NCBI GenBank assembly: GCA_022711395.1
Contig: JAKLFA010000006.1
Location: 154-64,153, forward strand
Length of the DNA stretch: 64,000 nt
Source of the DNA: Candidatus Omnitrophota bacterium
GTDB taxonomy: Bacteria; Omnitrophota; Gorgyraeia; Zapsychrales; JANLHA01
Direction of reading: 5' to 3'
Shown here: in pieces, positions 1,207 to 21,449 of the stretch
Layout: each line of letters opens with the position of its first letter
How positions within the stretch are numbered: the stretch's first letter is position 1
Notes under the pieces: generated by a model
Database searches by the model: none
What the model saw: only the letters and a program-made list of their open reading frames with translations
What the model was told of the DNA's origin: nothing
Program-made: the position numbers and the translations under genes

Positions 1207-3453
1207 ATGAAAAGGGACCACACACAACTTATTTGCGATATCGGAGAACTGAGCGGGGCGTCCAGCCGGTCGCCGAGACTGGAAGATTTTTTGAGCCGAT
1301 CGGCGGAGCTGGTCGCGCAGCATATGCAGTCTCAGGTTTGTTCGATCTATCTGTATTTTGAAGACACTCAGGAGTTGGTCCTGAAGGCGACCAAGGGATT
1401 AAAGCCTGAGGCGGTGGACAATGTCCGCCTGAGGCTGGGGGAAGGATTGACCGGGCTCGCTTTAAAAGAGATGCGCCCTATTTGTGAAAGGGAGGCGAGC
1501 AAGATCCCCGGATACCGGTATTTCCCGGAAATCGGAGAAGAGGCGTATGATTCGTTCTTGGCCGTGCCGATCCTGCGCGGGACGAACCGGATCGGTGTCA
1601 TGGTCGTGCAGAATGCCAAGAGCGATTATTTCAGCCAGGAGGATATCAATACCCTGAAAGCGATCACTTCGCAGTTGGCGATGACCATTGAGACCGCGAA
1701 GATCCTTTTGGCGATCGAAGAGCAGAACAGGGACGCCGGATCATTTCCGGAAGAAAAGCCTTTAAAATTTTTTAAAGGCCGGTCCGGCGGTTCCGGAGTG
1801 GTCTTAGGGGAGGCGGTCATCCTTGAGGATAAGAGGCGCTTTTTCATGACCGAAAAGAATTTCGGGACAGGTTCGTATTCTGTGCAGGATTTCTTAAAGG
1901 CCCTTGAGAAAACGGAACAAAGCCTTCAGGCTTTGCAGGAGCAGGTCGAAGAAAAACTTTCGGATGTGGCGTCTTTGATCTTTACCGCGCAGATCCTGAT
2001 GCTCAAAGATAAGCCGTTCATTGATTCGATCGTGCATCAGATCCAGTCCGGCCGCAATGCCGTCGACGCGGTCCGGCGCACCGTTCATCAGTATGTCCAC
2101 CGTTTTGAAAGTCTGGATAACCGCTATATCAGGGAAAAGGCCCAGGATGTTTTGGACGTGGGGCTGCATTTGCTGGAGCATTTGGCCGGCACCGCCCTTT
2201 ACGGGCAGGGAGAAGAAGGAAAGATCGTGATCGCGCAGGAGCTTTTTCCGTCGGACATGCTGAAGCTTTCTTCCCGCGGCGCCAAGGGGGTCATTTTGTT
2301 GAGCGGGGGGATCACCTCGCACATCGCGATCCTGTCCCGTTCTTTGGAGATCCCGCTTGTTTTCGCGGATGAGTCCCGCCTTTTGAAAGTCCCTTCACGG
2401 ACACGGGTCCTTTTGGACGCAGGGCAGGGCAACGTGTATATTGATCCGGATGAAACGGTGTTGAGAACGTTCCAACCTGCTTTAGAGGGCGCGCGCGATG
2501 CGCAAAAGGCCAGGACAGAGTCCCTGGATGAAACCCGCACGGCGGACGGGGCCAGGGTCATGCTGCTTTCAAACATCAATCTTTTGTGCGATCTGAACGT
2601 CGCGCGGGATTTTAAATCCGAAGGGATCGGGCTTTACCGGACGGAATTCCCGTTCATGATCCGTTCAGATTTCCCTTCCGAAGAAGAGCAGTACGTGGTT
2701 TACAAGAAACTGGTCGAAGGGATGCCCGGCAAAGACGTGACGTTCCGCACGCTGGATATTGGCGGGGATAAGGTTCTGTCCTATTATGATTACGGCCGGG
2801 AGGAAAATCCGTTTTTGGGGATGCGATCGATCCGGTTTTCGCTCAGGCATAAGGATATTTTCCGCCAGCAACTGCGGGCGATCCTGCGCGCGGGAACAGG
2901 GGCGGAACTGAAGATCATGTTCCCGATGATCTCTTCCGTGGATGAATTTCTGGACGCGCGAAAGCAGGTCGAGCTGAGCATGGAGGAACTTAGATCGGTA
3001 GGAGTTCCGTTTCATCAGGCCCCGGAATTGGGAATGATGGTCGAGCTTCCGTCGGTTTTGGAGATCATGGACGAGTTGGCTGAAGAGGCGGATTTTTTCA
3101 GCATCGGGACCAATGATTTTATTCAGTATATGCTTGCTGTTGACCGGACCAACGAAAAAGTGGCGGATCTGTATCTTCCGCATCATCCGTCGATCTTAAG
3201 GGCGCTCAAGCGCGTGGTCGAGGCGGCCGGCCGCCATGGCAAGGACGTAGCTGTTTGCGGGGACATGTCTTATGATGAACGCTATCTTCCGTATTTTCTG
3301 GGGATCGGCATCCGCAAGTTCAGCGTGGACCCTCATTGGATCCCCAGGGTTCAGAAGGCGGTCTCCCGGATCGACCTGAACGAGGCCCGACGAAAAACGC
3401 AGGCCCTGCTGGAAATGAAAAAAGTTGCGGATATTGAGCGGAATCTGTTGTAA
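1207..3453 (+). CDS. ptsP: Phosphoenolpyruvate-protein phosphotransferase with an N-terminal GAF domain (nitrogen-PTS Enzyme I)
   Basis: N-terminal GAF-like region aligns with the start of E. coli PtsP, so the ATG at 1207 is preferred over the TTG at 1162. The EI core shows GGITSHIAILSRSLEIPLV (active-site His) and the PEP-utilising C-terminal domain (FSIGTNDFIQY, CGDMS). Confidence 0.85.
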   Translation: MKRDHTQLICDIGELSGASSRSPRLEDFLSRSAELVAQHMQSQVCSIYLYFEDTQELVLKATKGLKPEAVDNVRLRLGEGLTGLALKEMRPICEREASKIPGYRYFPEIGEEAYDSFLAVPILRGTNRIGVMVVQNAKSDYFSQEDINTLKAITSQLAMTIETAKILLAIEEQNRDAGSFPEEKPLKFFKGRSGGSGVVLGEAVILEDKRRFFMTEKNFGTGSYSVQDFLKALEKTEQSLQALQEQVEEKLSDVASLIFTAQILMLKDKPFIDSIVHQIQSGRNAVDAVRRTVHQYVHRFESLDNRYIREKAQDVLDVGLHLLEHLAGTALYGQGEEGKIVIAQELFPSDMLKLSSRGAKGVILLSGGITSHIAILSRSLEIPLVFADESRLLKVPSRTRVLLDAGQGNVYIDPDETVLRTFQPALEGARDAQKARTESLDETRTADGARVMLLSNINLLCDLNVARDFKSEGIGLYRTEFPFMIRSDFPSEEEQYVVYKKLVEGMPGKDVTFRTLDIGGDKVLSYYDYGREENPFLGMRSIRFSLRHKDIFRQQLRAILRAGTGAELKIMFPMISSVDEFLDARKQVELSMEELRSVGVPFHQAPELGMMVELPSVLEIMDELAEEADFFSIGTNDFIQYMLAVDRTNEKVADLYLPHHPSILRALKRVVEAAGRHGKDVAVCGDMSYDERYLPYFLGIGIRKFSVDPHWIPRVQKAVSRIDLNEARRKTQALLEMKKVADIERNLL

Positions 3454-3484: not shown

Positions 3485-3970
3485 ATGTTGGCATGGATGA
3501 TTCTGGTGGTCGGGATCTTGTCCCGCGTTATGTTCCATGAACCGAATTTTACGCCGGTCATCGCCCTGGTACTGTTCGGAGGGATGTATTTAAGGAAAGA
3601 ACAGGCTGTTTGGGTGCCGGTCGTGCTCATGATCGTTTCCGATGTCCTGATCGGATTTCACAGCGTGATCGCCTTTACCTGGGGGAGCATGCTGGCGATC
3701 AGCCTGCTGGGTGCGCTCAAACGCGAGGATCGCAGTTTTGGCCGTAGTCTGGGCCTGAGTTTTGTTTCAGCGGTCCTGTTTTTTGTCGTGACCAATTTCG
3801 GCGCGTGGCTTGCGATGTATCCGAAGACCTTGACGGGATTGATGGAATGTTATATCGCGGCAATACCTTTTTTCCGCACGACATTGTTCAGCACGCTGAT
3901 GTATAGTTGTATTTTGTGGGCGGCGTATGAACTGGGCGCGAAGCGGTTTCCGCGTTTGGCAACGGTTTAG
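3485..3970 (+). CDS. Hypothetical polytopic membrane protein (~160 aa, 4-5 TM helices)
   Basis: ATG at 3485 preceded by an aaaaggag RBS; hydrophobic helices throughout; family not recognised. Confidence 0.55.
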   Translation: MLAWMILVVGILSRVMFHEPNFTPVIALVLFGGMYLRKEQAVWVPVVLMIVSDVLIGFHSVIAFTWGSMLAISLLGALKREDRSFGRSLGLSFVSAVLFFVVTNFGAWLAMYPKTLTGLMECYIAAIPFFRTTLFSTLMYSCILWAAYELGAKRFPRLATV

Positions 3971-4029
3971 AGACCTGATAAATGGAGTAAGGGAGGGTTT
4001 GTTCAAAATTTGTGTACCGGTTCCTTGAG

Positions 4030-4295
4030 GCGAAAGCTCAAGGATCAAAAGGGAAAGCTTCCTTCGCTTGGCGAGGGGACCTCTTAAAAAGGATTTTTTA
4101 GGGGGCGGTGAAACGCCGGCACGGTCCCGCCACTGTAAGGGTTTAGTTAAACCCAAGTCAGAACGCCTGCCGGTATTTTCAGTATTTGTGTGCTGCGACG
4201 GACAGCGCAAATACGAACATAGATTTGGGATCAAGAGCTACGGGTGCAATCCCAATCGGACAAGACAATGTCTGGTTGGGATTTTTTATTTTTGC
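4030..4295 (+). promoter_or_regulatory. Cobalamin (AdoCbl) riboswitch with a terminator-type expression platform, in the leader of the TonB-dependent receptor gene
   Basis: Conserved core AAGGGAAAGC ... GGTGAAACGCCGGCACGGTCCCGCCACTGTAAGGG, including the B12 box GCCACTG at 4129-4135. Downstream hairpin aatcccaa...ttgggatt followed by TTTTTTATTTTT (4248-4294), and a possible antiterminator partner tttgggat at 4224-4231. Confidence 0.7.
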
Positions 4296-12841: not shown

Positions 12842-12918
12842 GGCCCAGTAGCTCAGGTGGATAGAGCAACAGCCTTCTAAGCTGTGGGTCGGACGTTCGA
12901 GTCGTCCCTGGGTCACCA
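12842..12918 (+). tRNA. tRNA-Arg (anticodon TCT), CCA encoded
   Basis: Acceptor GGCCCAG/CTGGGTC, D-arm GCTC-AGGTGGATA-GAGC, anticodon stem ACAGC/GCTGT with loop CTTCTAA (anticodon TCT), T-arm GGACG-TTCGAGT-CGTCC. Confidence 0.9.
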
Positions 12919-12977: not shown

Positions 12978-14009
12978 ATGCTCAGATACCTCCGATATGT
13001 CCTGATGTGGCTTGGAATCGTTTTCATTCTTTTCGTCGTGATCTGCTACTATTATGTTCAGGCCGGCGGGAAGCTTTTTATTGAAAAACGGTTCTCCATT
13101 TTTTTTCAGCAGCCGGCGACCATCGGTGAGATCCGTTTTCTTCTTCCGCTGGGATTAAGGTTCAAGAATCTTCAGATCCAGAACTTTATCAAGGCCGAAG
13201 ACGTGCAACTGCAGGTGGGGATGCCGTTCGTTTTTGATAAACGCCTGGTGATCCAGAAGCTTGTGCTCAAGCATCCGGTCTTTACCGGGGTTTATGATGA
13301 ACATAAAAAATTCCAGTTTGGGGGGGCGTATCTGGCCCAGAGAGAAAAATCCCTTCGGGAAGGATCGAGCTCGGAGGCTCCGTTCTTTGAAGGGATGCGC
13401 ATTGAGTATTTTGAAGTAAAAGACGGAGAGGTCGAGATCCTTAATTTTTCGAAGAACCCGTCTGAGCGGTATTTTTTTGACCAGATCCAGCTCAAGGCGC
13501 TGGATGTTTCCTACCCTTTGCTGGACCAGCGGGTCAAGTTTGACGTGAAGGCTTTTATACAAAAAGGGTTCGGACTGTTCGATCGGGGGGTCTTTACTTC
13601 TGAGGGGTGGGTCAACTGGCCTAAGAGGAGCTTAAGCAGCAAAGTTGATTTTGTGGATGACAGGCAGTTTTCGCGTATCCAGATCGACGCGAAATCGGAG
13701 AACAATGACCTAAAAGTCGCCGGATCCGCGCAGTGGGATGCCTCCCGGCTGGACCAGGTTGAAAAAGCGGATATCCAGAAGGCCGGGGGCGATTTCGCGG
13801 GGGGGCTGGCGGTGGGGGTCTTGAGCTTGGCGAAGGGCGAGCAGACCTTTCAGTTTGATTTTTCGACCAAGCTGGATGATCCGCAGTTGAGCACGATCAA
13901 TCTTTCCGGCGCGATAAACCTTAATGTCCCGCCTTTTGAAAAAAGTGAAGAGCCGGTGGCATTAAAACCGTTTGAAATTTTCAGCGGGGCCGCCGTGAAA
14001 GGCAAATAA
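12978..14009 (+). CDS. Hypothetical protein with an N-terminal TM anchor (possibly AsmA/DUF-type periplasmic protein)
   Basis: ORF with hydrophobic N-terminus MLRYLRYVLMWLGIVFILFVVICYYYV. The start is uncertain; a GTG at 12936 is also possible. Confidence 0.5.
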   Translation: MLRYLRYVLMWLGIVFILFVVICYYYVQAGGKLFIEKRFSIFFQQPATIGEIRFLLPLGLRFKNLQIQNFIKAEDVQLQVGMPFVFDKRLVIQKLVLKHPVFTGVYDEHKKFQFGGAYLAQREKSLREGSSSEAPFFEGMRIEYFEVKDGEVEILNFSKNPSERYFFDQIQLKALDVSYPLLDQRVKFDVKAFIQKGFGLFDRGVFTSEGWVNWPKRSLSSKVDFVDDRQFSRIQIDAKSENNDLKVAGSAQWDASRLDQVEKADIQKAGGDFAGGLAVGVLSLAKGEQTFQFDFSTKLDDPQLSTINLSGAINLNVPPFEKSEEPVALKPFEIFSGAAVKGK

Positions 14010-14077
14010 ACAGGTCAAAAACAAAAACTTGCTGTTTGAAGGAATTTTGTTAAAATAGGGGCTCAATTTGAATTTAT

Positions 14078-14153
14078 GGTGGCTGTAGCGCAGTGGTAGC
14101 GCACAAGATTGTGGCTCTTGGTGTCGCGGGTTCAAATCCCGTCAGCCACCCCA
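14078..14153 (+). tRNA. tRNA-His (anticodon GTG) with G-1, CCA encoded
   Basis: Extra 5' G pairs with discriminator C; acceptor GTGGCTG/CAGCCAC; anticodon stem CAAGA/TCTTG with loop TTGTGGC (anticodon GTG); T-arm GCGGG-TTCAAAT-CCCGT. Confidence 0.9.
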
Positions 14154-14192
14154 AATATAAAGCGCCCTCAAACGAGGGCGCTTTTATATTTG
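14154..14192 (+). terminator. Rho-independent terminator after tRNA-His
   Basis: aaagcgccctc-aaac-gagggcgctttt followed by atattt. Confidence 0.6.
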
Positions 14193-14289
14193 GTACGGTT
14201 TGACCAATTGAAGTGGCAGGAGAAGGCGGCGGGTGACCGAATTCGGCTTATAGAAGCCGGGTGAGGAAATGGTTGACGCTCCGCGGCAA

Positions 14290-14312
14290 CCATTCAAATC
14301 CCGTCAGCCACC
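14290..14312 (+). repeat. 23-bp direct duplication of the tRNA-His 3' end (att-like scar)
   Basis: ttcaaatcccgtcagccacccca occurs again about 140 bp downstream of the identical tRNA-His 3' segment. Confidence 0.7.
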
Positions 14313-14606
14313 CCAGCTTCCACAAAATAAAATCCCCGCCCGGATTCAGGCGGGGATTTTGTGTTTAGGGAAGCTGGGGTGTTGTGCGGATTTCCTTAGA
14401 TTCATTCAGAAAGATCTGCCCACCCCAGATAAAAAATGTCAGCTTTATGTGGGCTTTTTTTATTTGGGTCAAGTCGACTGAAGTCGAGTGGATTTACGGG
14501 CGACCGAGTCCGGCTTCCATAAAATAAGATTTCTCACCTGGAAATGAAAACTTCCACCGGATCGGGGACGGTTTAGTAGGAATGCGATAAAAAAGGAACT
14601 CTAAGA

Positions 14607-14789
14607 ATGGAAGAAGCAATAGAGATAATTGCCGCAGTGCGTAACGAAATGATTCGGAACTTTGAGCAGCCATTGGGTTTTATCATCAGAGAAGAAAGTA
14701 AAAAAGGTCCGTTTGGCAGTTATTATATAACGCTTACTAACACCGTTTCTCTTGTTGCATCAAAAATCAGAAGAGTCCCAAGTTCGTGA
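14607..14789 (+). CDS. Small hypothetical protein (60 aa) in the AT-rich post-tRNA region
   Basis: ORF with a weak RBS (aaggaa) and no recognisable family; it lies between copies of a repeated motif. Confidence 0.3.
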   Translation: MEEAIEIIAAVRNEMIRNFEQPLGFIIREESKKGPFGSYYITLTNTVSLVASKIRRVPSS

Positions 14790-14933
14790 ATAAGGCGACT
14801 TTAGTCAAGGAAGAAGCCTCACAGCGGACGCCGGCTTTCACAAAATAAAATTTGCTAAAAAAATTTTCTTGACAAATTTAATTTATGTTTTATACTTGAG
14901 TAAACCAATAGGAATTATAGAGGTTGAGGGCGC

Positions 14934-15374
14934 ATGAAAATTACGCATAAAGGCGATTATGCATTGAAGGCTGTTTTAGATCTGGCCCTTCATTATGAGC
15001 AGGAATTGGTGGCAAGCAGTGAAATGGCTAAGCGTATAGATGCCCCGGTCAAATTTTTGGAACAGATCCTTTTGGATTTAAAAAAAGGCGGGATTATCCG
15101 GAGCCGGCGCGGTGTTGAAGGCGGGTATTTGTTATCAAAAGCGCCCGCGCAGATAGCCGTAGGCGACGTGATCCGGCTGATCGAAGGGCCGATCGAACCG
15201 ATCGCATGTGTGAACGAAGGGTATGCCAACTGCGAGGATCTGAGGAAGTGTGTTTTTAGAGATATTTTTCAGAGGGTGTTTGAGGCCACCGCGGACATTA
15301 TTGATAACATCACCTTTGAAGATCTGGTTTTAAAAATAAATTCGCGTCAGCAGGTGCTGACATATTCTATTTAA
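14934..15374 (+). CDS. Rrf2-family transcriptional regulator (IscR/CymR-like); by context likely a cysteine-metabolism repressor
   Basis: N-terminal wHTH MKITHKGDYALKAVLDLALH...SSEMAKRIDAPVKFLEQILLDLKKGGIIRSRRGVEGGYLL is typical of Rrf2. It sits upstream of yezD-cysK-cbs-cgl. Confidence 0.85.
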   Translation: MKITHKGDYALKAVLDLALHYEQELVASSEMAKRIDAPVKFLEQILLDLKKGGIIRSRRGVEGGYLLSKAPAQIAVGDVIRLIEGPIEPIACVNEGYANCEDLRKCVFRDIFQRVFEATADIIDNITFEDLVLKINSRQQVLTYSI

Positions 15375-15387
15375 GGAAGAACAAAAA

Positions 15388-15474
15388 ATGAACAGGCTTT
15401 TTAGTAGTATTCCTATGATGATGTGTTGTTTGGCGGTGTGCCGCCTTCGAGGTGGTGGAGGTCCGCCTGTGTAA
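15388..15474 (+). CDS. Candidate 28-aa Met/Cys-rich leader peptide (MNRLFSSIPMMMCCLAVCRLRGGGGPPV)
   Basis: RBS aaggaaga 8 nt upstream of the ATG. Three consecutive Met codons, then two Cys codons and a later Cys. The Met/Cys codons (15418-15427) pair perfectly over 10 bp with 15473-15482, and a terminator follows. Confidence 0.35.
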   Translation: MNRLFSSIPMMMCCLAVCRLRGGGGPPV

Positions 15475-15506
15475 CACATCATTCAATCAGTAGGCGCGAC
15501 GGGACA

Positions 15507-15552
15507 ACCCACTGCCAAGAAAGAGACACCAAAGGCAGTGGGTTTTTTATTT
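15507..15552 (+). terminator. Rho-independent terminator / attenuator hairpin
   Basis: acccactgcc ... ggcagtgggt followed by TTTTTTATTT. Confidence 0.65.
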
Positions 15553-15571
15553 ATAAATTCAGGAGGAGAAC

Positions 15572-15763
15572 ATGGGCTTAAATCAGAATTCAAAGAACAT
15601 TGTGAATGACGCAATCATCAAGGACATCAGCGATTCGATCCACGGGGTCAGTTTTGGGACAGTCACGATCATCATTCACAATTCAAAGATCGTCCAGATC
15701 GAGGTCTCTCAAAAGAGCCGCTTTGATGACGTCTGGATCGTTCAGGAAGGAGGTGGGATCTAA
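15572..15763 (+). CDS. YezD-family (DUF2292) small protein, commonly associated with sulfur metabolism
   Basis: Strong RBS caggaggag. The core GVSFGTVTIIIHNSKIVQIEVSQKSRF matches the YezD signature (G-S-V-I-H-D-K-V-Q-I-E). Confidence 0.65.
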   Translation: MGLNQNSKNIVNDAIIKDISDSIHGVSFGTVTIIIHNSKIVQIEVSQKSRFDDVWIVQEGGGI

Positions 15764-15890
15764 AGAATTTGATTGGTTTCGCCGCTGACCGGTTTTCCGG
15801 CAGCGTTTTTAAGACGAGAAAACAGGAAATTTGCAAGGCATCACCAGACCACTGGATCAGTCCTGCGCTTAAACTTGAAAGGGTGGGAAC

Positions 15891-16745
15891 ATGAAGAACA
15901 CGAGTACAATTCAATCGGTTATTGCGGGGATTTTTCTTCTGGTCACAGAGGGCGCGGTGCACGCCGGTCTGCCGTTAAACAACGTTGAAGGGGTTGGAGG
16001 GGTCGCCTTCAATCCTCTGGCCTACACCGCCGGAACGCCGTTTGAGAAAACAGAGAAGTCGGAGGGGACGAGTTCCATTAAGGATGTGGTGAACAAGCCT
16101 CAGTTTGGCATCTGGCGGATCCGCCTCAATGATGTGAATGCGGATTGGACGACCCAGAGCGTGGCAACGACCTTTTTCGACCGCGTTGAGCTTTCGTATG
16201 GAAATGAAACGATCGCGCAGAGCGGGGCCGATAATATCCATAAGAACAATATCGGCGTGAAGGGCCTATTAGTGAAGGAGAACCAGGGGGACACTCAGTG
16301 GGTTCCCGCCGTAGCGGTGGGCGCGATCTACAAGGATACAAATTACGCGGTCTCGGGCGATGTGGATGATCAAGGCTATGATTATTACGTCGTGGCCACG
16401 AAGCTCATCCCGCAGCTTCCCCTGCCCGTTCTTTTGTCCGGGGGTGTCCGTTCGACCGACGCCCGCTCGACAGGCGTTTACGGGTTTGGTACCAAGCGCG
16501 ACCTCATCGGGTTCGGCAACGTGGATGTTGTCCTTCCCGGCAATGTTGCGATCGGGTTTGAGTATCAGCAGGGGGCCCAGGTGACCGGATGGGAGAATGA
16601 TGATTATTACGATATTCATGCGGCATGGCTCGCGAATAAGAATCTGACCCTGGTTGCCGCGTATGTTGATACCGGGGCAGCTACAGGAAACAGCAAGGTC
16701 GGGCTCGGAGACGGGTTTGTCTTGAGCGCACATTACGCCTTTTAA
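15891..16745 (+). CDS. Putative outer-membrane beta-barrel protein (small porin/transport-like)
   Basis: Signal peptide (IAGIFLLVTEGAVHA), alternating amphipathic beta-strand pattern, C-terminal ...SAHYAF with a terminal Phe. Confidence 0.55.
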   Translation: MKNTSTIQSVIAGIFLLVTEGAVHAGLPLNNVEGVGGVAFNPLAYTAGTPFEKTEKSEGTSSIKDVVNKPQFGIWRIRLNDVNADWTTQSVATTFFDRVELSYGNETIAQSGADNIHKNNIGVKGLLVKENQGDTQWVPAVAVGAIYKDTNYAVSGDVDDQGYDYYVVATKLIPQLPLPVLLSGGVRSTDARSTGVYGFGTKRDLIGFGNVDVVLPGNVAIGFEYQQGAQVTGWENDDYYDIHAAWLANKNLTLVAAYVDTGAATGNSKVGLGDGFVLSAHYAF

Positions 16746-16830
16746 TGAATCGTCTAGGGGGGAAGGGCGCGCCCTTCCCCTTAAAGTAATACTAAGAGAG
16801 GAGTAGAAAATTAAAGGAGGATGGGAAAAT

Positions 16831-17766
16831 ATGAGCCGTATTTATGAGGACATCACAGAAACTGTGGGGCGGACCCCGTTAGTCCGGCTGAACCGGATCA
16901 CGGAAGGGGCGATTGCGGAGGTCTATGCAAAGGTAGAATCGTTTAACCCCCTTTCCAGCGTCAAGGATCGTATCGGTTTGGCGATGATCGAAGACGCTGA
17001 ACAGCGGGGCGTCTTGAAGAAGGATTCCGTGATCGTTGAGCCCACGAGCGGGAACACCGGCGTCGCGCTGGCGTTTGTCGCGGCGGCCAAAGGGTATAAG
17101 TTGATCATAACGATGCCGGAGACCATGTCGATCGAGCGCCGCCAGCTTTTGGCGATTTTTGGCGCCCAGCTTGTGCTGACGCCCGGGTCTGAAGGCATGA
17201 AGGGCGCGATCAAGAAAGCAGAAGAGTTGGCGGCGTCGACACCGGACGCGGTCTTTTTGCAGCAGTTTGCCAATCCGGCCAATCCTGAAATTCACCGTAA
17301 AACAACGGCCGAGGAGATATGGAACGATACCGACGGCAAGGTCGATATTATTATTTCAGGCGTTGGCACGGGCGGGACGATCACGGGCGTTTCTGAGGTG
17401 ATCAAGAAGCGCAAAAGTTCGTTTAAGGCGATCGCGGTCGAGCCGTTTGATTCGCCGGTCCTTTCCGGCGGTAATCCCGGCCCTCATAAGATCCAGGGTA
17501 TCGGCGCGGGGTTTGTTCCCCAGGTTTTGAATACCAAGGTGATCGATGAGATTGTCCAGGTCAAGTCGGAAGACGCGGGAGAAACGGCGCGGAAGCTGGC
17601 GCGTCAGGAAGGTATTCTGGCCGGCATCTCCAGCGGCGCCGCTGTTTGGGCCGCACTGGAAGTCGCCAGGAGGCCGGAAAACAAAGGAAAGACAATCGTC
17701 GTGGTCCTGCCGGATACCGGGGAACGCTACCTGACGACCTGGCTTTTTCAGGACATCAAAGTATAA
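16831..17766 (+). CDS. cysK: Cysteine synthase A (O-acetylserine sulfhydrylase)
   Basis: GRTPLVRL, the PLP-lysine motif SVKDRIG, and the TSGNTG and GxGTGGT loops. Confidence 0.9.
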
Positions 17767-17786: not shown

Positions 17787-19152
17787 ATGGCTCGCTATAA
17801 CAGTATTTTGGAGGCGATTGGGCGGACGCCTTTAGTGAGATTAAACAGTCTCACGAAGAATATTAAATCTATTATTTATGTAAAGCCTGAATTTCTTAAC
17901 CCGGGAGGAAGTGTTAAAGACCGCATCGGATTAACGATGGTTGATGCCGCCGAGAGGGAGGGCCGTCTCAAGCCCGGCGGAACGATCATTGAAGCCACTG
18001 CAGGCAATACTGGAGTTGGCCTTGCTCTGGTTGCGGCCATTCGGGGCTATCGTTGCATTTTCGTTATGCCGGACAAAATGAGTCAGGATAAAATTAATTT
18101 GCTCAAATCCTACGGTGCTGAGGTTGTCATTACCCCGACATCGGTTGCTCCGGATTCTCCTGAAAGTTATAACGGGGTCGCTGATAGACTGGCTAAAGAA
18201 ATACCGGGCGCATATCGCCCGAATCAATTCGAAAATCCCAATAACCCGTTGGCGCATTATCGTACGACCGGGCCGGAAATCTGGGAAGATTCGGAAGGCC
18301 AGATCGAAGTTTTTGTCGCTGGGATGGGGACGGGCGGGACGATATCCGGCATAGCCAAATACCTTAAAGAAAAGAATTCGGCGATTACGATTGTCGGCGC
18401 TGATCCGCAAGGGTCGATCCTTTCCGGGGACAGCCCCCACTCGTATAAGGTGGAAGGCATCGGCGAAGATTTTATTCCTAAAACGTTTAATCGTCAGGTT
18501 GTGGATGAAATGGTGCGGGTCAGCGACAAGGAATCGTTTAATACGGCCCGGCGTTTGGCCCGGGAAGAAGGACTCCTGGTCGGCGGATCTTCTGGAACGG
18601 CTTTGGCGGCAGCCTTGAAGTACGCGGAGAGACTGGATGTTCCTAAGTATATTGTTGTGCTTTTGCCGGATACAGGCAGAAATTATATCAACAAAATATT
18701 CTCGGATTCCTGGATGCAGGAAAACGGTTTTTGGGAAGGCCGACAAGCCAAAGCGGTTTACATCAAAGACATCCTGAGCTCGAAAAGAAATCTTCCGGAG
18801 CTGATTTCGGTGTCTCCTAGAGAAAAGCTGGTCCGGGCGATTCATTTGATCCAGGAAAATAATATTTCCCAGCTGCCGGTCATCGATGACCAGGAAATAG
18901 TCGGCAGTTTAAACGAGGCCTCGCTTATGCAACTCTTGCATGACGGCATTAAGTTTGACCAGCAAGATATTGCGACGGTTATGGCTAAACCTTTACCTGT
19001 TGTGGATGAGAACGTGAGCGTCTCGGAGGCTTATCGGGTTTTGCTTTCCGGATCGACGGGGATCGTGGTCAAGAGGAAGGGAAAGCCTGCTGGATTGATT
19101 ACGAGGGTGGATCTGGTGAGCTACTGGATCATGCACAAGAAGGAGGATGGTT

Positions 19153-19163
<11 letters not shown>
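17787..19163 (+). CDS. Cystathionine beta-synthase-type PLP enzyme (CysK/CysM fold plus a C-terminal tandem CBS pair)
   Basis: SVKDRIG, ATAGNTG and GMGTGGT motifs, then roughly 130 aa with two CBS/Bateman motifs (QLPVIDD..., LPVVDEN...). Confidence 0.8.

Positions 19164-21449
<2,286 letters not shown>

Follow-up and report, generated by a model that had tools for sequence, protein, structure and literature searches.

The DNA analysed here, called the window throughout, is a stretch of 64,000 nucleotides from contig JAKLFA010000006.1 of a Candidatus Omnitrophota bacterium. Its forward strand carries an operon that opens with the gene of an Rrf2-family regulator and continues, after a spacer, with yezD, DUF3034, cysK and the genes of cystathionine beta-synthase (cbs) and a cystathionine gamma-lyase/synthase-type enzyme (cgl). 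The spacer is the subject of this report: it contains a short open reading frame (ORF) rich in Met and Cys codons, followed by an intrinsic terminator, and we describe it as a candidate leader-peptide attenuator. An initial annotation, made from the letters of the window, had proposed such an element between rrf2 and yezD ... cysK, cbs, cgl; we confirmed this gene order, with DUF3034 lying between yezD and cysK. Coordinates are collected in Table 1.

Leader ORF, terminator and alternative helices

The leader ORF begins 13 nt beyond the end of rrf2 (position 15374), and both the ribosome-binding site and the MMMCC run with a third Cys that the initial annotation had described are in place, the Met codons occupying 15415-15423 and the Cys codons 15424-15429 and 15439-15441. 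We compared this composition with that of all 524 small ORFs of the window (ATG start, 15-80 amino acids) and found that the leader ORF alone contains at least five Met or Cys residues per nine, its best nine-residue count being six and that of the runner-up four. The leader peptide gave no Pfam hit, and a search of the 64-kb window for a second copy of the element returned only chance matches with two mismatches.

The terminator consists of a perfect 11-bp stem, an A-rich loop of 17 nt and six T residues at 15543-15548, the first two of which close the stem, in agreement with the strong intrinsic terminator earlier placed at 15507-15552. It was absent from a consensus terminator scan, which permits loops of 3-8 nt only and missed it because its loop is 17 nt long. 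Long loops (12-22 nt; window positions 15517-15533) that are rich in A or purines, for example AAGAAAGAGACACCAAA, occur in every member of the family described below, and might serve slower hairpin closure or the binding of a factor.

The exact complementarity between 15418-15427 and 15473-15482, previously noted as a 10-nt stem, grows to 12 bp when the RNA is folded and is joined by two inner helices. Perfect inverted repeats of at least 10 nt arose in 25 of 5000 shuffles of 15388-15556 (0.5%), and the folding of the region against shuffles gave z = -2.68; the decisive argument against a chance origin is the conservation described below. The Met-Met-Cys codons do lie in this 1:2 stem, as the initial annotation had it, but region 2 is not the post-stop CAUCAU segment alone: it comprises the whole 3' end of the ORF (the Gly-Gly-Pro-Pro-Met/Val codons), the stop codon and the post-stop bases, so that the C-terminus of the peptide is itself strongly constrained. 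A 2:3 antiterminator, which had escaped the initial annotation, exists as well, being built from an 8-bp outer helix and inner helices. The three pairings 1:2, 2:3 and 3:4 are mutually exclusive. A pairing of region 1 with region 3 (15429-15437 with 15511-15519) occurs in the window only, is unconserved and was dismissed.

The element is not covered by any source annotation. We searched Rfam 15 with window positions 14000-17000 (E up to 10) and with five other members (E up to 1), and found no matching family, SAM (S-adenosylmethionine) riboswitches and T-boxes included; the matches returned were noise, namely DicF, DdR11 and microRNAs.

Table 1. Features of the locus, in window coordinates; pairings are given with their folding energies.
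Feature	Coordinates	Strand	Details
Sigma-70-type promoter of the operon	14869-14896	+	TTGACA (14869-14874), 16-nt spacer, TATACT (14891-14896); 11 of 12 matches
Operator-like box overlapping -10/+1	14894-14922	+	ACTTGAGTAAACCAATAGGAATTATAGAG; from by-eye alignment of ~25 upstream regions
rrf2, first gene of the transcript	14934-15374	+	Rrf2-family regulator; PF02082, TIGR00738
Shine-Dalgarno (SD) sequence of the leader ORF	15373-15379	+	AAGGAAG, 8 nt from the ATG; overlaps the rrf2 stop codon
Leader ORF	15388-15474	+	28 codons and stop; encodes MNRLFSSIPMMMCCLAVCRLRGGGGPPV; last 19 codons, with frame and stop position, conserved in 32 of the 34 distinct loci
Putative regulatory codon block	15415-15441	+	Met10-Met11-Met12-Cys13-Cys14 (15415-15429), Cys18 (15439-15441)
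Region 1	15417-15445	+	5' strand of the 1:2 'protector' hairpin; 15417-15428, 15432-15436, 15441-15445
Region 2	15451-15483	+	Gly22-Gly25, Pro26-Pro27, Val28, stop, post-stop CACAUCAUU; partner is region 1 or region 3
Region 3	15488-15516	+	'UAGG box' (CAGUAGGCGCGAC) and invariant GGGACAACCCACUGCC; 15506-15516 doubles as terminator 5' arm
Region 4	15534-15552	+	terminator 3' arm GGCAGUGGGUU (15534-15544), U-tract UUUUAUUU (15545-15552)
1:2 pairing	15417-15428 with 15472-15483; 15432-15436 with 15463-15467; 15441-15445 with 15454-15458		12 bp in the first helix; -34.3 kcal/mol
2:3 pairing	15451-15458 with 15509-15516; 15461-15464 with 15502-15505; inner helix		8 bp in the first helix (GGUGGUGG with CCACUGCC); -21.5 kcal/mol
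2:3 inner helix in alternative fold	15464-15469 with 15491-15496		
3:4 pairing (terminator)	15506-15516 with 15534-15544		-18.9 to -19.8 kcal/mol
yezD-like DUF2292, first regulated gene	15572-15763	+	weak similarity to OscA, a sulfur-starvation protein; SD GGAGGA (15562-15567)
DUF3034	15891-16745	+	
cysK	16831-17766	+	
Cystathionine beta-synthase	17787-19163	+	
Cystathionine gamma-lyase/synthase-type Cys/Met pyridoxal-phosphate enzyme	19147-20295	+	

Conservation of the leader and of its pairings

Related loci were retrieved by a genome scan anchored on Rrf2 (80 loci), by a single metagenome scan with GGGACAACCCACTRCC-N(8-30)-TGGGTT (29 loci, 26 of them distinct) and by a reciprocal search with a profile of the leader peptide. 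Omnitrophota genomes and metagenomes supplied 34 distinct loci, of which 32 show the same layout of short ORF, conserved block and terminator, in which the ORF stop is followed after ~26 nt by the near-invariant GGGACAACCCACURCC and then by the terminator; measured to GGGACAACCCAC, the stop lies 23-29 nt upstream, and in a few loci 42-47 nt. The peptides share the C-terminal consensus (M)MMCC[ML]AMC-x-[LF]-x-G-[RGM]-GGPPM-stop, so the short ORF and its Met/Cys codons, whose retention near yezD/cysK in relatives the initial annotation had named as a check, are kept in these 32 loci.

The element is present in 3 of the 80 Rrf2-anchored loci. Most Omnitrophota relatives have metY, cysK or the gene of PAPS (3'-phosphoadenosine 5'-phosphosulfate) reductase less than 60 nt after rrf2, with no spacer; the three genomes with the element have a spacer of ~200 nt holding a Met/Cys-rich short ORF and the 12-mer GGGACAACCCAC, the leaders being MVIYIKDLNMMMCCLGLCSLWGRGGPPM in L009 (28 amino acids), ...IMCRMAMCSLLGRGGPPM in L013, between cysK and yezD, and ...IMRIYCCCGMWEPPM in L022, before metY. 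The metagenome scan, which selects for the DNA motif, returned the family ORF in all distinct loci except L088 and L109. The peptide profile in turn matched 12 database ORFs, all unnamed or 'hypothetical protein', and led to loci L116-L119, reached by the peptide alone, where the post-stop ACAUCAUC, the terminator 5' arm AACCCACUACC and the terminator are all present, with CGGACAACCCAC or GGCAACCCAC standing in for GGGACAACCCAC (in L116 the leader lies at 3001-3162). Thus, selection on the DNA motif recovers the ORF and selection on the peptide recovers the terminator, which makes the retrieval reciprocal and independent.

Both loci without the family ORF are given in the orientation that puts GGGACAACCCAC on the + strand. 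L088 (1-84) is cut by a contig end and has only a short ORF ending in ...VMCIFILL-stop, and in L109 (~95-222) an ORF with a Cys run, out of frame with the Gly-Pro-stop end, terminates 3 nt short of the motif, perhaps through a frameshift or a sequencing error. Among relatives lacking the leader, different hairpins, long and perfect, follow rrf2 in the spacer: L010 has a 20-bp stem at 3941-4041, and L028 (2478-2698) and L048 (857-1102) have extended GGGACAGUC-type repeats or long inverted repeats, unrelated to the leader.

The genes downstream of the element are always sulfur or Met/Cys genes. In 23 distinct loci these are yezD(-DUF3034-cysK), in L022, L094 and L106 metY, in L108 the PAPS reductase gene, in L116, L118 and L119 metY-metX-metW, and in L117 metY, a PALP enzyme gene and metX. 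Upstream, rrf2 precedes the element in 11 loci (the window and 10 others), and in ~15 loci the element stands directly behind a promoter, with neither rrf2 nor any other gene between, indicating that it is a 5' leader and not a mere gene-end terminator of rrf2.

The ORF bears a coding signature. Its N-termini cannot be aligned and vary from 8 to 30 codons; the family frame is the longest open frame in 22 of 22 loci evaluated, and the sole indel within the conserved part is one whole codon, in L108. Entropy at codon positions 1, 2 and 3 is 0.65, 0.41 and 0.88, with synonymous departures from the consensus in 65 codon cells. Codons -18 to -11 read M, M, C, C, M, A, M, C in 19 to 25 of 26 aligned members, and the last 20 codons hold 2-7 Met and 2-5 Cys, together about one third to one half. 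Single Cys positions are replaceable (CC becomes CR, CY, YC or CS), and the Met/Cys enrichment persists in L022, L090, L100 and L101 although the rest of the peptide diverges, suggesting that these are redundant regulatory codons rather than structural ligands.

We then assessed the pairings over all members. A helix between the Met/Cys block and the segment made up of the stop codon and the post-stop bases occurs in 31 of 32 members; for this helix the shuffle control discriminates weakly (11.5 nt paired against 7.9 nt), because shuffled tails rich in A, U and C still pair with AUG runs. From a plain MAFFT alignment, RNAalifold recovered only the inner 1:2 helix (M-C-x-L against G-G-P-P-M codons) and the terminator. 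Since the post-stop region is misaligned between sub-types, folds of single sequences and an N-padded, anchor-based alignment were used instead. Folding restricted to the stretch from region 2 to the terminator 5' arm paired 7 or more of the 11 nt of the arm with the Gly-codon tract in 25 of 28 members, and among 21 main-type sequences 89% of the antiterminator cells were paired, as opposed to 34-47% with the partners slid by 1-3 columns. In the anchor-based alignment of these 21 sequences, three antiterminator pairs show double changes, in five cells.

The inner antiterminator helix comes in three versions: CCGCCUAUG with CGUAGG-a-CGG in the main type, CGCCUA with UAGGCG plus GUCC with GGAC in the window type, and GUCCG with CGGAC plus UGUAAAC with GUUUGCA in the metY type. 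Compensatory changes are seen in L094 (CUCAUG/UAUGAG), L022 (CCCAUG/CAUGGG) and L108 (CCA/UGG), and the terminator is present in all members, including those retrieved by the peptide only. Residue -10 (R, S, G or C; codon NGC) varies freely and sits at an unpaired RNA column; the dual pairing duty of the segments thus accounts for the near-invariant GGGACAACCCACURCC and the conserved peptide C-terminus as well as for this free position.

Proposed mechanism and alternative explanations

We consider it likely that the element is a ribosome-mediated (leader-peptide) transcription attenuator, which would report the level of charged Cys-tRNA and probably that of charged Met-tRNA. The computational evidence, that is the conservation in 32 of 34 loci and the recurrent 2:3 antiterminator, supports the Met/Cys attenuation put forward by the initial annotation. 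In the folding models the element has the classical 1:2 / 2:3 / 3:4 architecture, with the regulatory codons in region 1. A stalled ribosome was modelled by masking the RNA as far as 12 nt beyond the first Cys codon (Cys in the A site). In 30 of 32 members folded under this mask, upstream sequence engages 6 nt or more of the terminator 5' arm while the 3' arm is still to be made.

According to this model, transcription would start at the promoter at 14869-14896, where it is probably repressed by Rrf2, and would proceed through rrf2 into the leader. With sulfur amino acids plentiful, a ribosome would read the 28 codons to the stop and, the stop codon being inside region 2, would cover this region; after its release, region 1 would recapture region 2 in the very stable 1:2 hairpin, leaving region 3 free for region 4, and the terminator would form and halt RNA polymerase at the U-tract before yezD. 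With Cys or Met scarce, the ribosome would instead stall within the MMMCC run, i.e., on the 5' strand of the 1:2 hairpin, exposing region 2 to pairing with the emerging region 3 through the outer and inner antiterminator helices. The terminator 5' arm would then be taken before the 3' arm is made, and polymerase would read through into yezD-DUF3034-cysK-cbs-cgl. In the window, terminated transcripts would still express rrf2 and the five genes behind the element would require read-through, attenuation being layered upon repression at the conserved promoter and operator.

Several points weigh against this interpretation. Part of region 2 is hidden when the mask is set at the last Cys codon instead, and an antiterminator then forms in 12 of 32 members only; compared with the 30 of 32 for the first Cys, these model footprints point to the MMMCC run as the productive stall site. 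The full-length minimum-energy fold retains the terminator despite the stall mask in 28 of 32 members, so antitermination would have to be a kinetic pre-emption; the full-length fold of the E. coli trp leader likewise keeps its terminator. The Gly tract of the window also has a competing partner within a local hairpin (15440-15446 with 15450-15456). Of the check by covariation that the initial annotation had suggested, complementarity came out strongly conserved and covariation modest, the observed values being reached 13-31 times in 500 shuffles, with a register chosen by us, a structure derived from the same sequences and a terminator arm fixed by the motif scan. As to the codons, Met could be retained for the AUGAUG/CAUCAU pairing instead of for sensing, and at Ala -13 and Gly -4 all four synonymous codons occur without a change of residue, a pattern of fixed residues with synonymous turnover that could mean that the peptide itself matters. 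Finally, the model assumes that transcription and translation are coupled in Omnitrophota.

A role for the peptide can be framed in more than one way. In its broadest form, which we find doubtful, the C-terminus (G-x-G-G-P-P-M-stop, with A-M-C) would be a pause or arrest module or a sulfur-metabolite sensor, or the peptide would act in trans, in combination with the regulon and an Fe-S-type Rrf2 protein. Such a module could govern the timing of the ribosome on region 2, or detect a sulfur metabolite inside the exit tunnel. If true, the leader would give bacteria an equivalent of the metabolite-sensing arrest peptides, serving sulfur amino-acid metabolism, and one leader type would coordinate yezD-cysK, metYXW and PAPS reductase.

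A pure nascent-peptide arrest sensor of the TnaC/SpeFL type, whose C-terminus would stall the ribosome at or near the stop codon in response to Cys, Met, SAM or sulfide, so that the stalled ribosome and not codon starvation would choose between terminator and antiterminator, is unlikely. Its appeal comes from the last 19 residues, which are conserved well beyond Met and Cys (Gly -7 and Gly -5 are invariant, Pro-Pro occurs in most members, and Ala -13 and Gly -4 are fixed as just described); Pro-Pro, and Pro near a stop codon, are slow translation sites. Pro-Pro is, however, replaced by LP, LS, SL, RP, CS or LF in several members, with a compensating RNA partner in L094, and L022, L090, L100 and L101 lack the conserved C-terminal peptide but remain rich in Met and Cys and keep the RNA element. 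The variable residue -10 at its unpaired column further indicates that RNA pairing explains much of the peptide conservation, and, with region 2 beneath a ribosome held at the stop, termination would be favoured, so that the signal logic would need inversion.

The coding-type substitutions, with the entropy peak at the third codon position and the 65 synonymous cells, and the 12 'hypothetical' or unnamed database ORFs would also suit a functional Met/Cys-rich micropeptide, metal- or sulfur-related or trans-acting like peTrpL, besides or instead of a role in cis, and trans-acting leader peptides have precedent (PMC7298713). We rate this explanation as quite improbable, as single Cys positions are not fixed, the N-terminal half is conserved neither in length nor in sequence, Pfam gave no hit, and the ORF is always joined to the terminator/antiterminator structure and always upstream of sulfur genes.

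That the RNA is a translation-independent switch, in which GGGACAACCCACURCC and the UAGG box bind a metabolite or protein and the ORF is incidental, is very improbable. The 16-nt block is indeed very strongly conserved, including 5 nt outside the terminator stem, and the terminator loop is unusually long and A-rich, yet the 1:2, 2:3 and 3:4 pairings account for all conserved blocks, the frame, stop position, whole-codon indel and Met/Cys enrichment are conserved, no riboswitch family matches, and the RNA has neither a multi-helix junction nor a pseudoknot of the kind common in aptamers.

An ordinary rrf2 terminator preceded by a spacer whose ORF and stem are coincidental, the objection that the initial annotation had raised against itself, would fit the position 130 nt downstream of rrf2 in the window, where it would end rrf2 transcripts, and the absence of a spacer after rrf2 in most relatives, but can be dismissed as scarcely credible given the ~15 loci without rrf2 upstream, the copies between cysK and yezD (L013) and before metY-metX-metW, and a leader ORF that is a unique outlier among the small ORFs of the window.

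Known attenuators, promoter region and neighbouring genes

A leader-peptide attenuator, the reading we favour, would place the element beside trpL, hisL, leuL, thrL, pheL and ilvL of Proteobacteria and the trp and ilvB attenuators of Actinobacteria, with which it shares an SD-led short ORF with a run of end-product codons, the location of these codons in the 5' strand of 1:2, a region 2 that alternates with the terminator 5' arm, and a terminator before the first structural gene. In sensing two amino acids, a Met and Cys leader would resemble the thr (Thr and Ile) and ilv (Ile/Val/Leu) leaders. The element differs from these classical systems in its Met plus Cys specificity, its occurrence in Omnitrophota, a region 2 within the 3' end of the ORF, and an A-rich terminator loop of 12-22 nt; in the window and 10 further loci the leader lies inside the operon behind the regulator gene and not at the 5' end, and it has no sequence similarity to those families.

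Among cysteine leaders, one of similar layout is uORFC-8-2, an attenuator predicted ahead of cysS in Rhodobacterales (Brewer et al. 2021, PMC8632094): its first stem likewise contains tandem Cys codons, and a terminator stem and a run of U residues come next. It is set apart here by description: it controls cysS, has two Cys codons and no Met run and belongs to alpha-Proteobacteria, whereas the Omnitrophota element is followed by yezD, cysK or metY and never by cysS; the Cys-Cys pairs (codons 13-14 in the window, ~14-15 in uORFC-8-2) are similar by position only. Actinobacterial cys/cbs leader peptides (Seliverstov et al. 2005, PMC1262725) and the leaderless polycysteine short ORFs of mycobacteria, termed the 'Cys ribulon' (Canestrari et al. 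2020, bioRxiv 10.1101/834739), also tie several cysteine operons to the Cys supply through stalling on Cys runs of upstream ORFs, one leader type serving several operons. The mycobacterial ORFs, however, unmask a downstream ribosome-binding site, and the Cys-codon leaders of Actinobacteria, known or predicted, give a translational output and have no terminator hairpin, whereas the Omnitrophota ORF has an SD sequence, starts 13 nt beyond rrf2 or, behind a promoter, at a distance of over 20 nt, and is joined to a conserved terminator/antiterminator output. Premature termination before Met/Cys biosynthesis genes is shared with the S-box (SAM-I) and other SAM riboswitches and with the Met/Cys T-boxes of Firmicutes, in which, unlike here, the RNA senses SAM or uncharged tRNA directly and translation is not needed.

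In the literature library searched, we found no description of an attenuator or leader based on Met codons, and nothing on leader-peptide attenuators, or gene regulation, in Omnitrophota. The element probably adds the sulfur amino acids to classical leader-peptide attenuation, probably as its first Met-codon example, and would extend this mode of control to an uncultivated phylum. The presence of the same leader before operons for cysteine synthesis, methionine synthesis and sulfate reduction points to a ribosome-directed regulon atop an Rrf2 repressor with a conserved operator. For annotation, the ~12 such ORFs in databases are unnamed or 'hypothetical' and the RNA is absent from Rfam, and a covariance model would allow both to be annotated correctly.

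In related loci, the promoter takes the form aaaaatACTTGACA-N17-TAtACT and stands ahead of rrf2 or immediately before the leader ORF. The box that overlaps it has the family consensus ACTCTACTATGTTGATAGAGATTATAGAG, an imperfect palindrome CTCTA-N9-TAGAG, and promoter and box were seen together in L009, L022, L091, L095, L098, L102, L105, L107, L112, L114, L115 and others. We regard the box at 14894-14922 as a probable Rrf2 repressor binding site. The window box contains ATAGGAATTA, which may resemble the B. subtilis CymR box in its 3' half. The Rrf2 gene itself had been correctly recognized in the initial annotation, where it was called 'CymR-like'; this qualifier holds as a contextual analogy only, as the protein scores under the NCBIfam equivalog cut-offs of IscR and CymR alike. 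C92, C100 and C106 are invariant among 29 homologues, and these three Cys residues suggest that the protein carries an Fe-S cluster. The identical protein is encoded in a metagenome-assembled genome of Candidatus Omnitrophota (GCA_035452745.1) and in several metagenome contigs.

As for the structural genes, our literature search yielded nothing usable on YezD/OscA. The DUF3034 protein has a signal-peptide-like N-terminus and its gene is paired with yezD behind the attenuator in many loci, and this arrangement ties both poorly understood families, yezD/DUF2292 and DUF3034, firmly to sulfur limitation.

Further upstream in the window lie the genes of tRNA-Arg(TCT) (12842-12918) and tRNA-His(GTG) (14079-14153). 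In locus L009, a match resembling a thiamine pyrophosphate riboswitch (1921-2046; 48.8 bits, gathering threshold 54.3, E = 3e-7) is located ~1.5 kb upstream of rrf2. Between the tRNA-His gene and the operon promoter of the window, a G+C-rich hairpin (CCCCGCC...GGCGGGG, ~14322-14360) flanked by runs of A and T has the appearance of a bidirectional terminator and gives a weak, sub-threshold Rfam match to rnk_pseudo.

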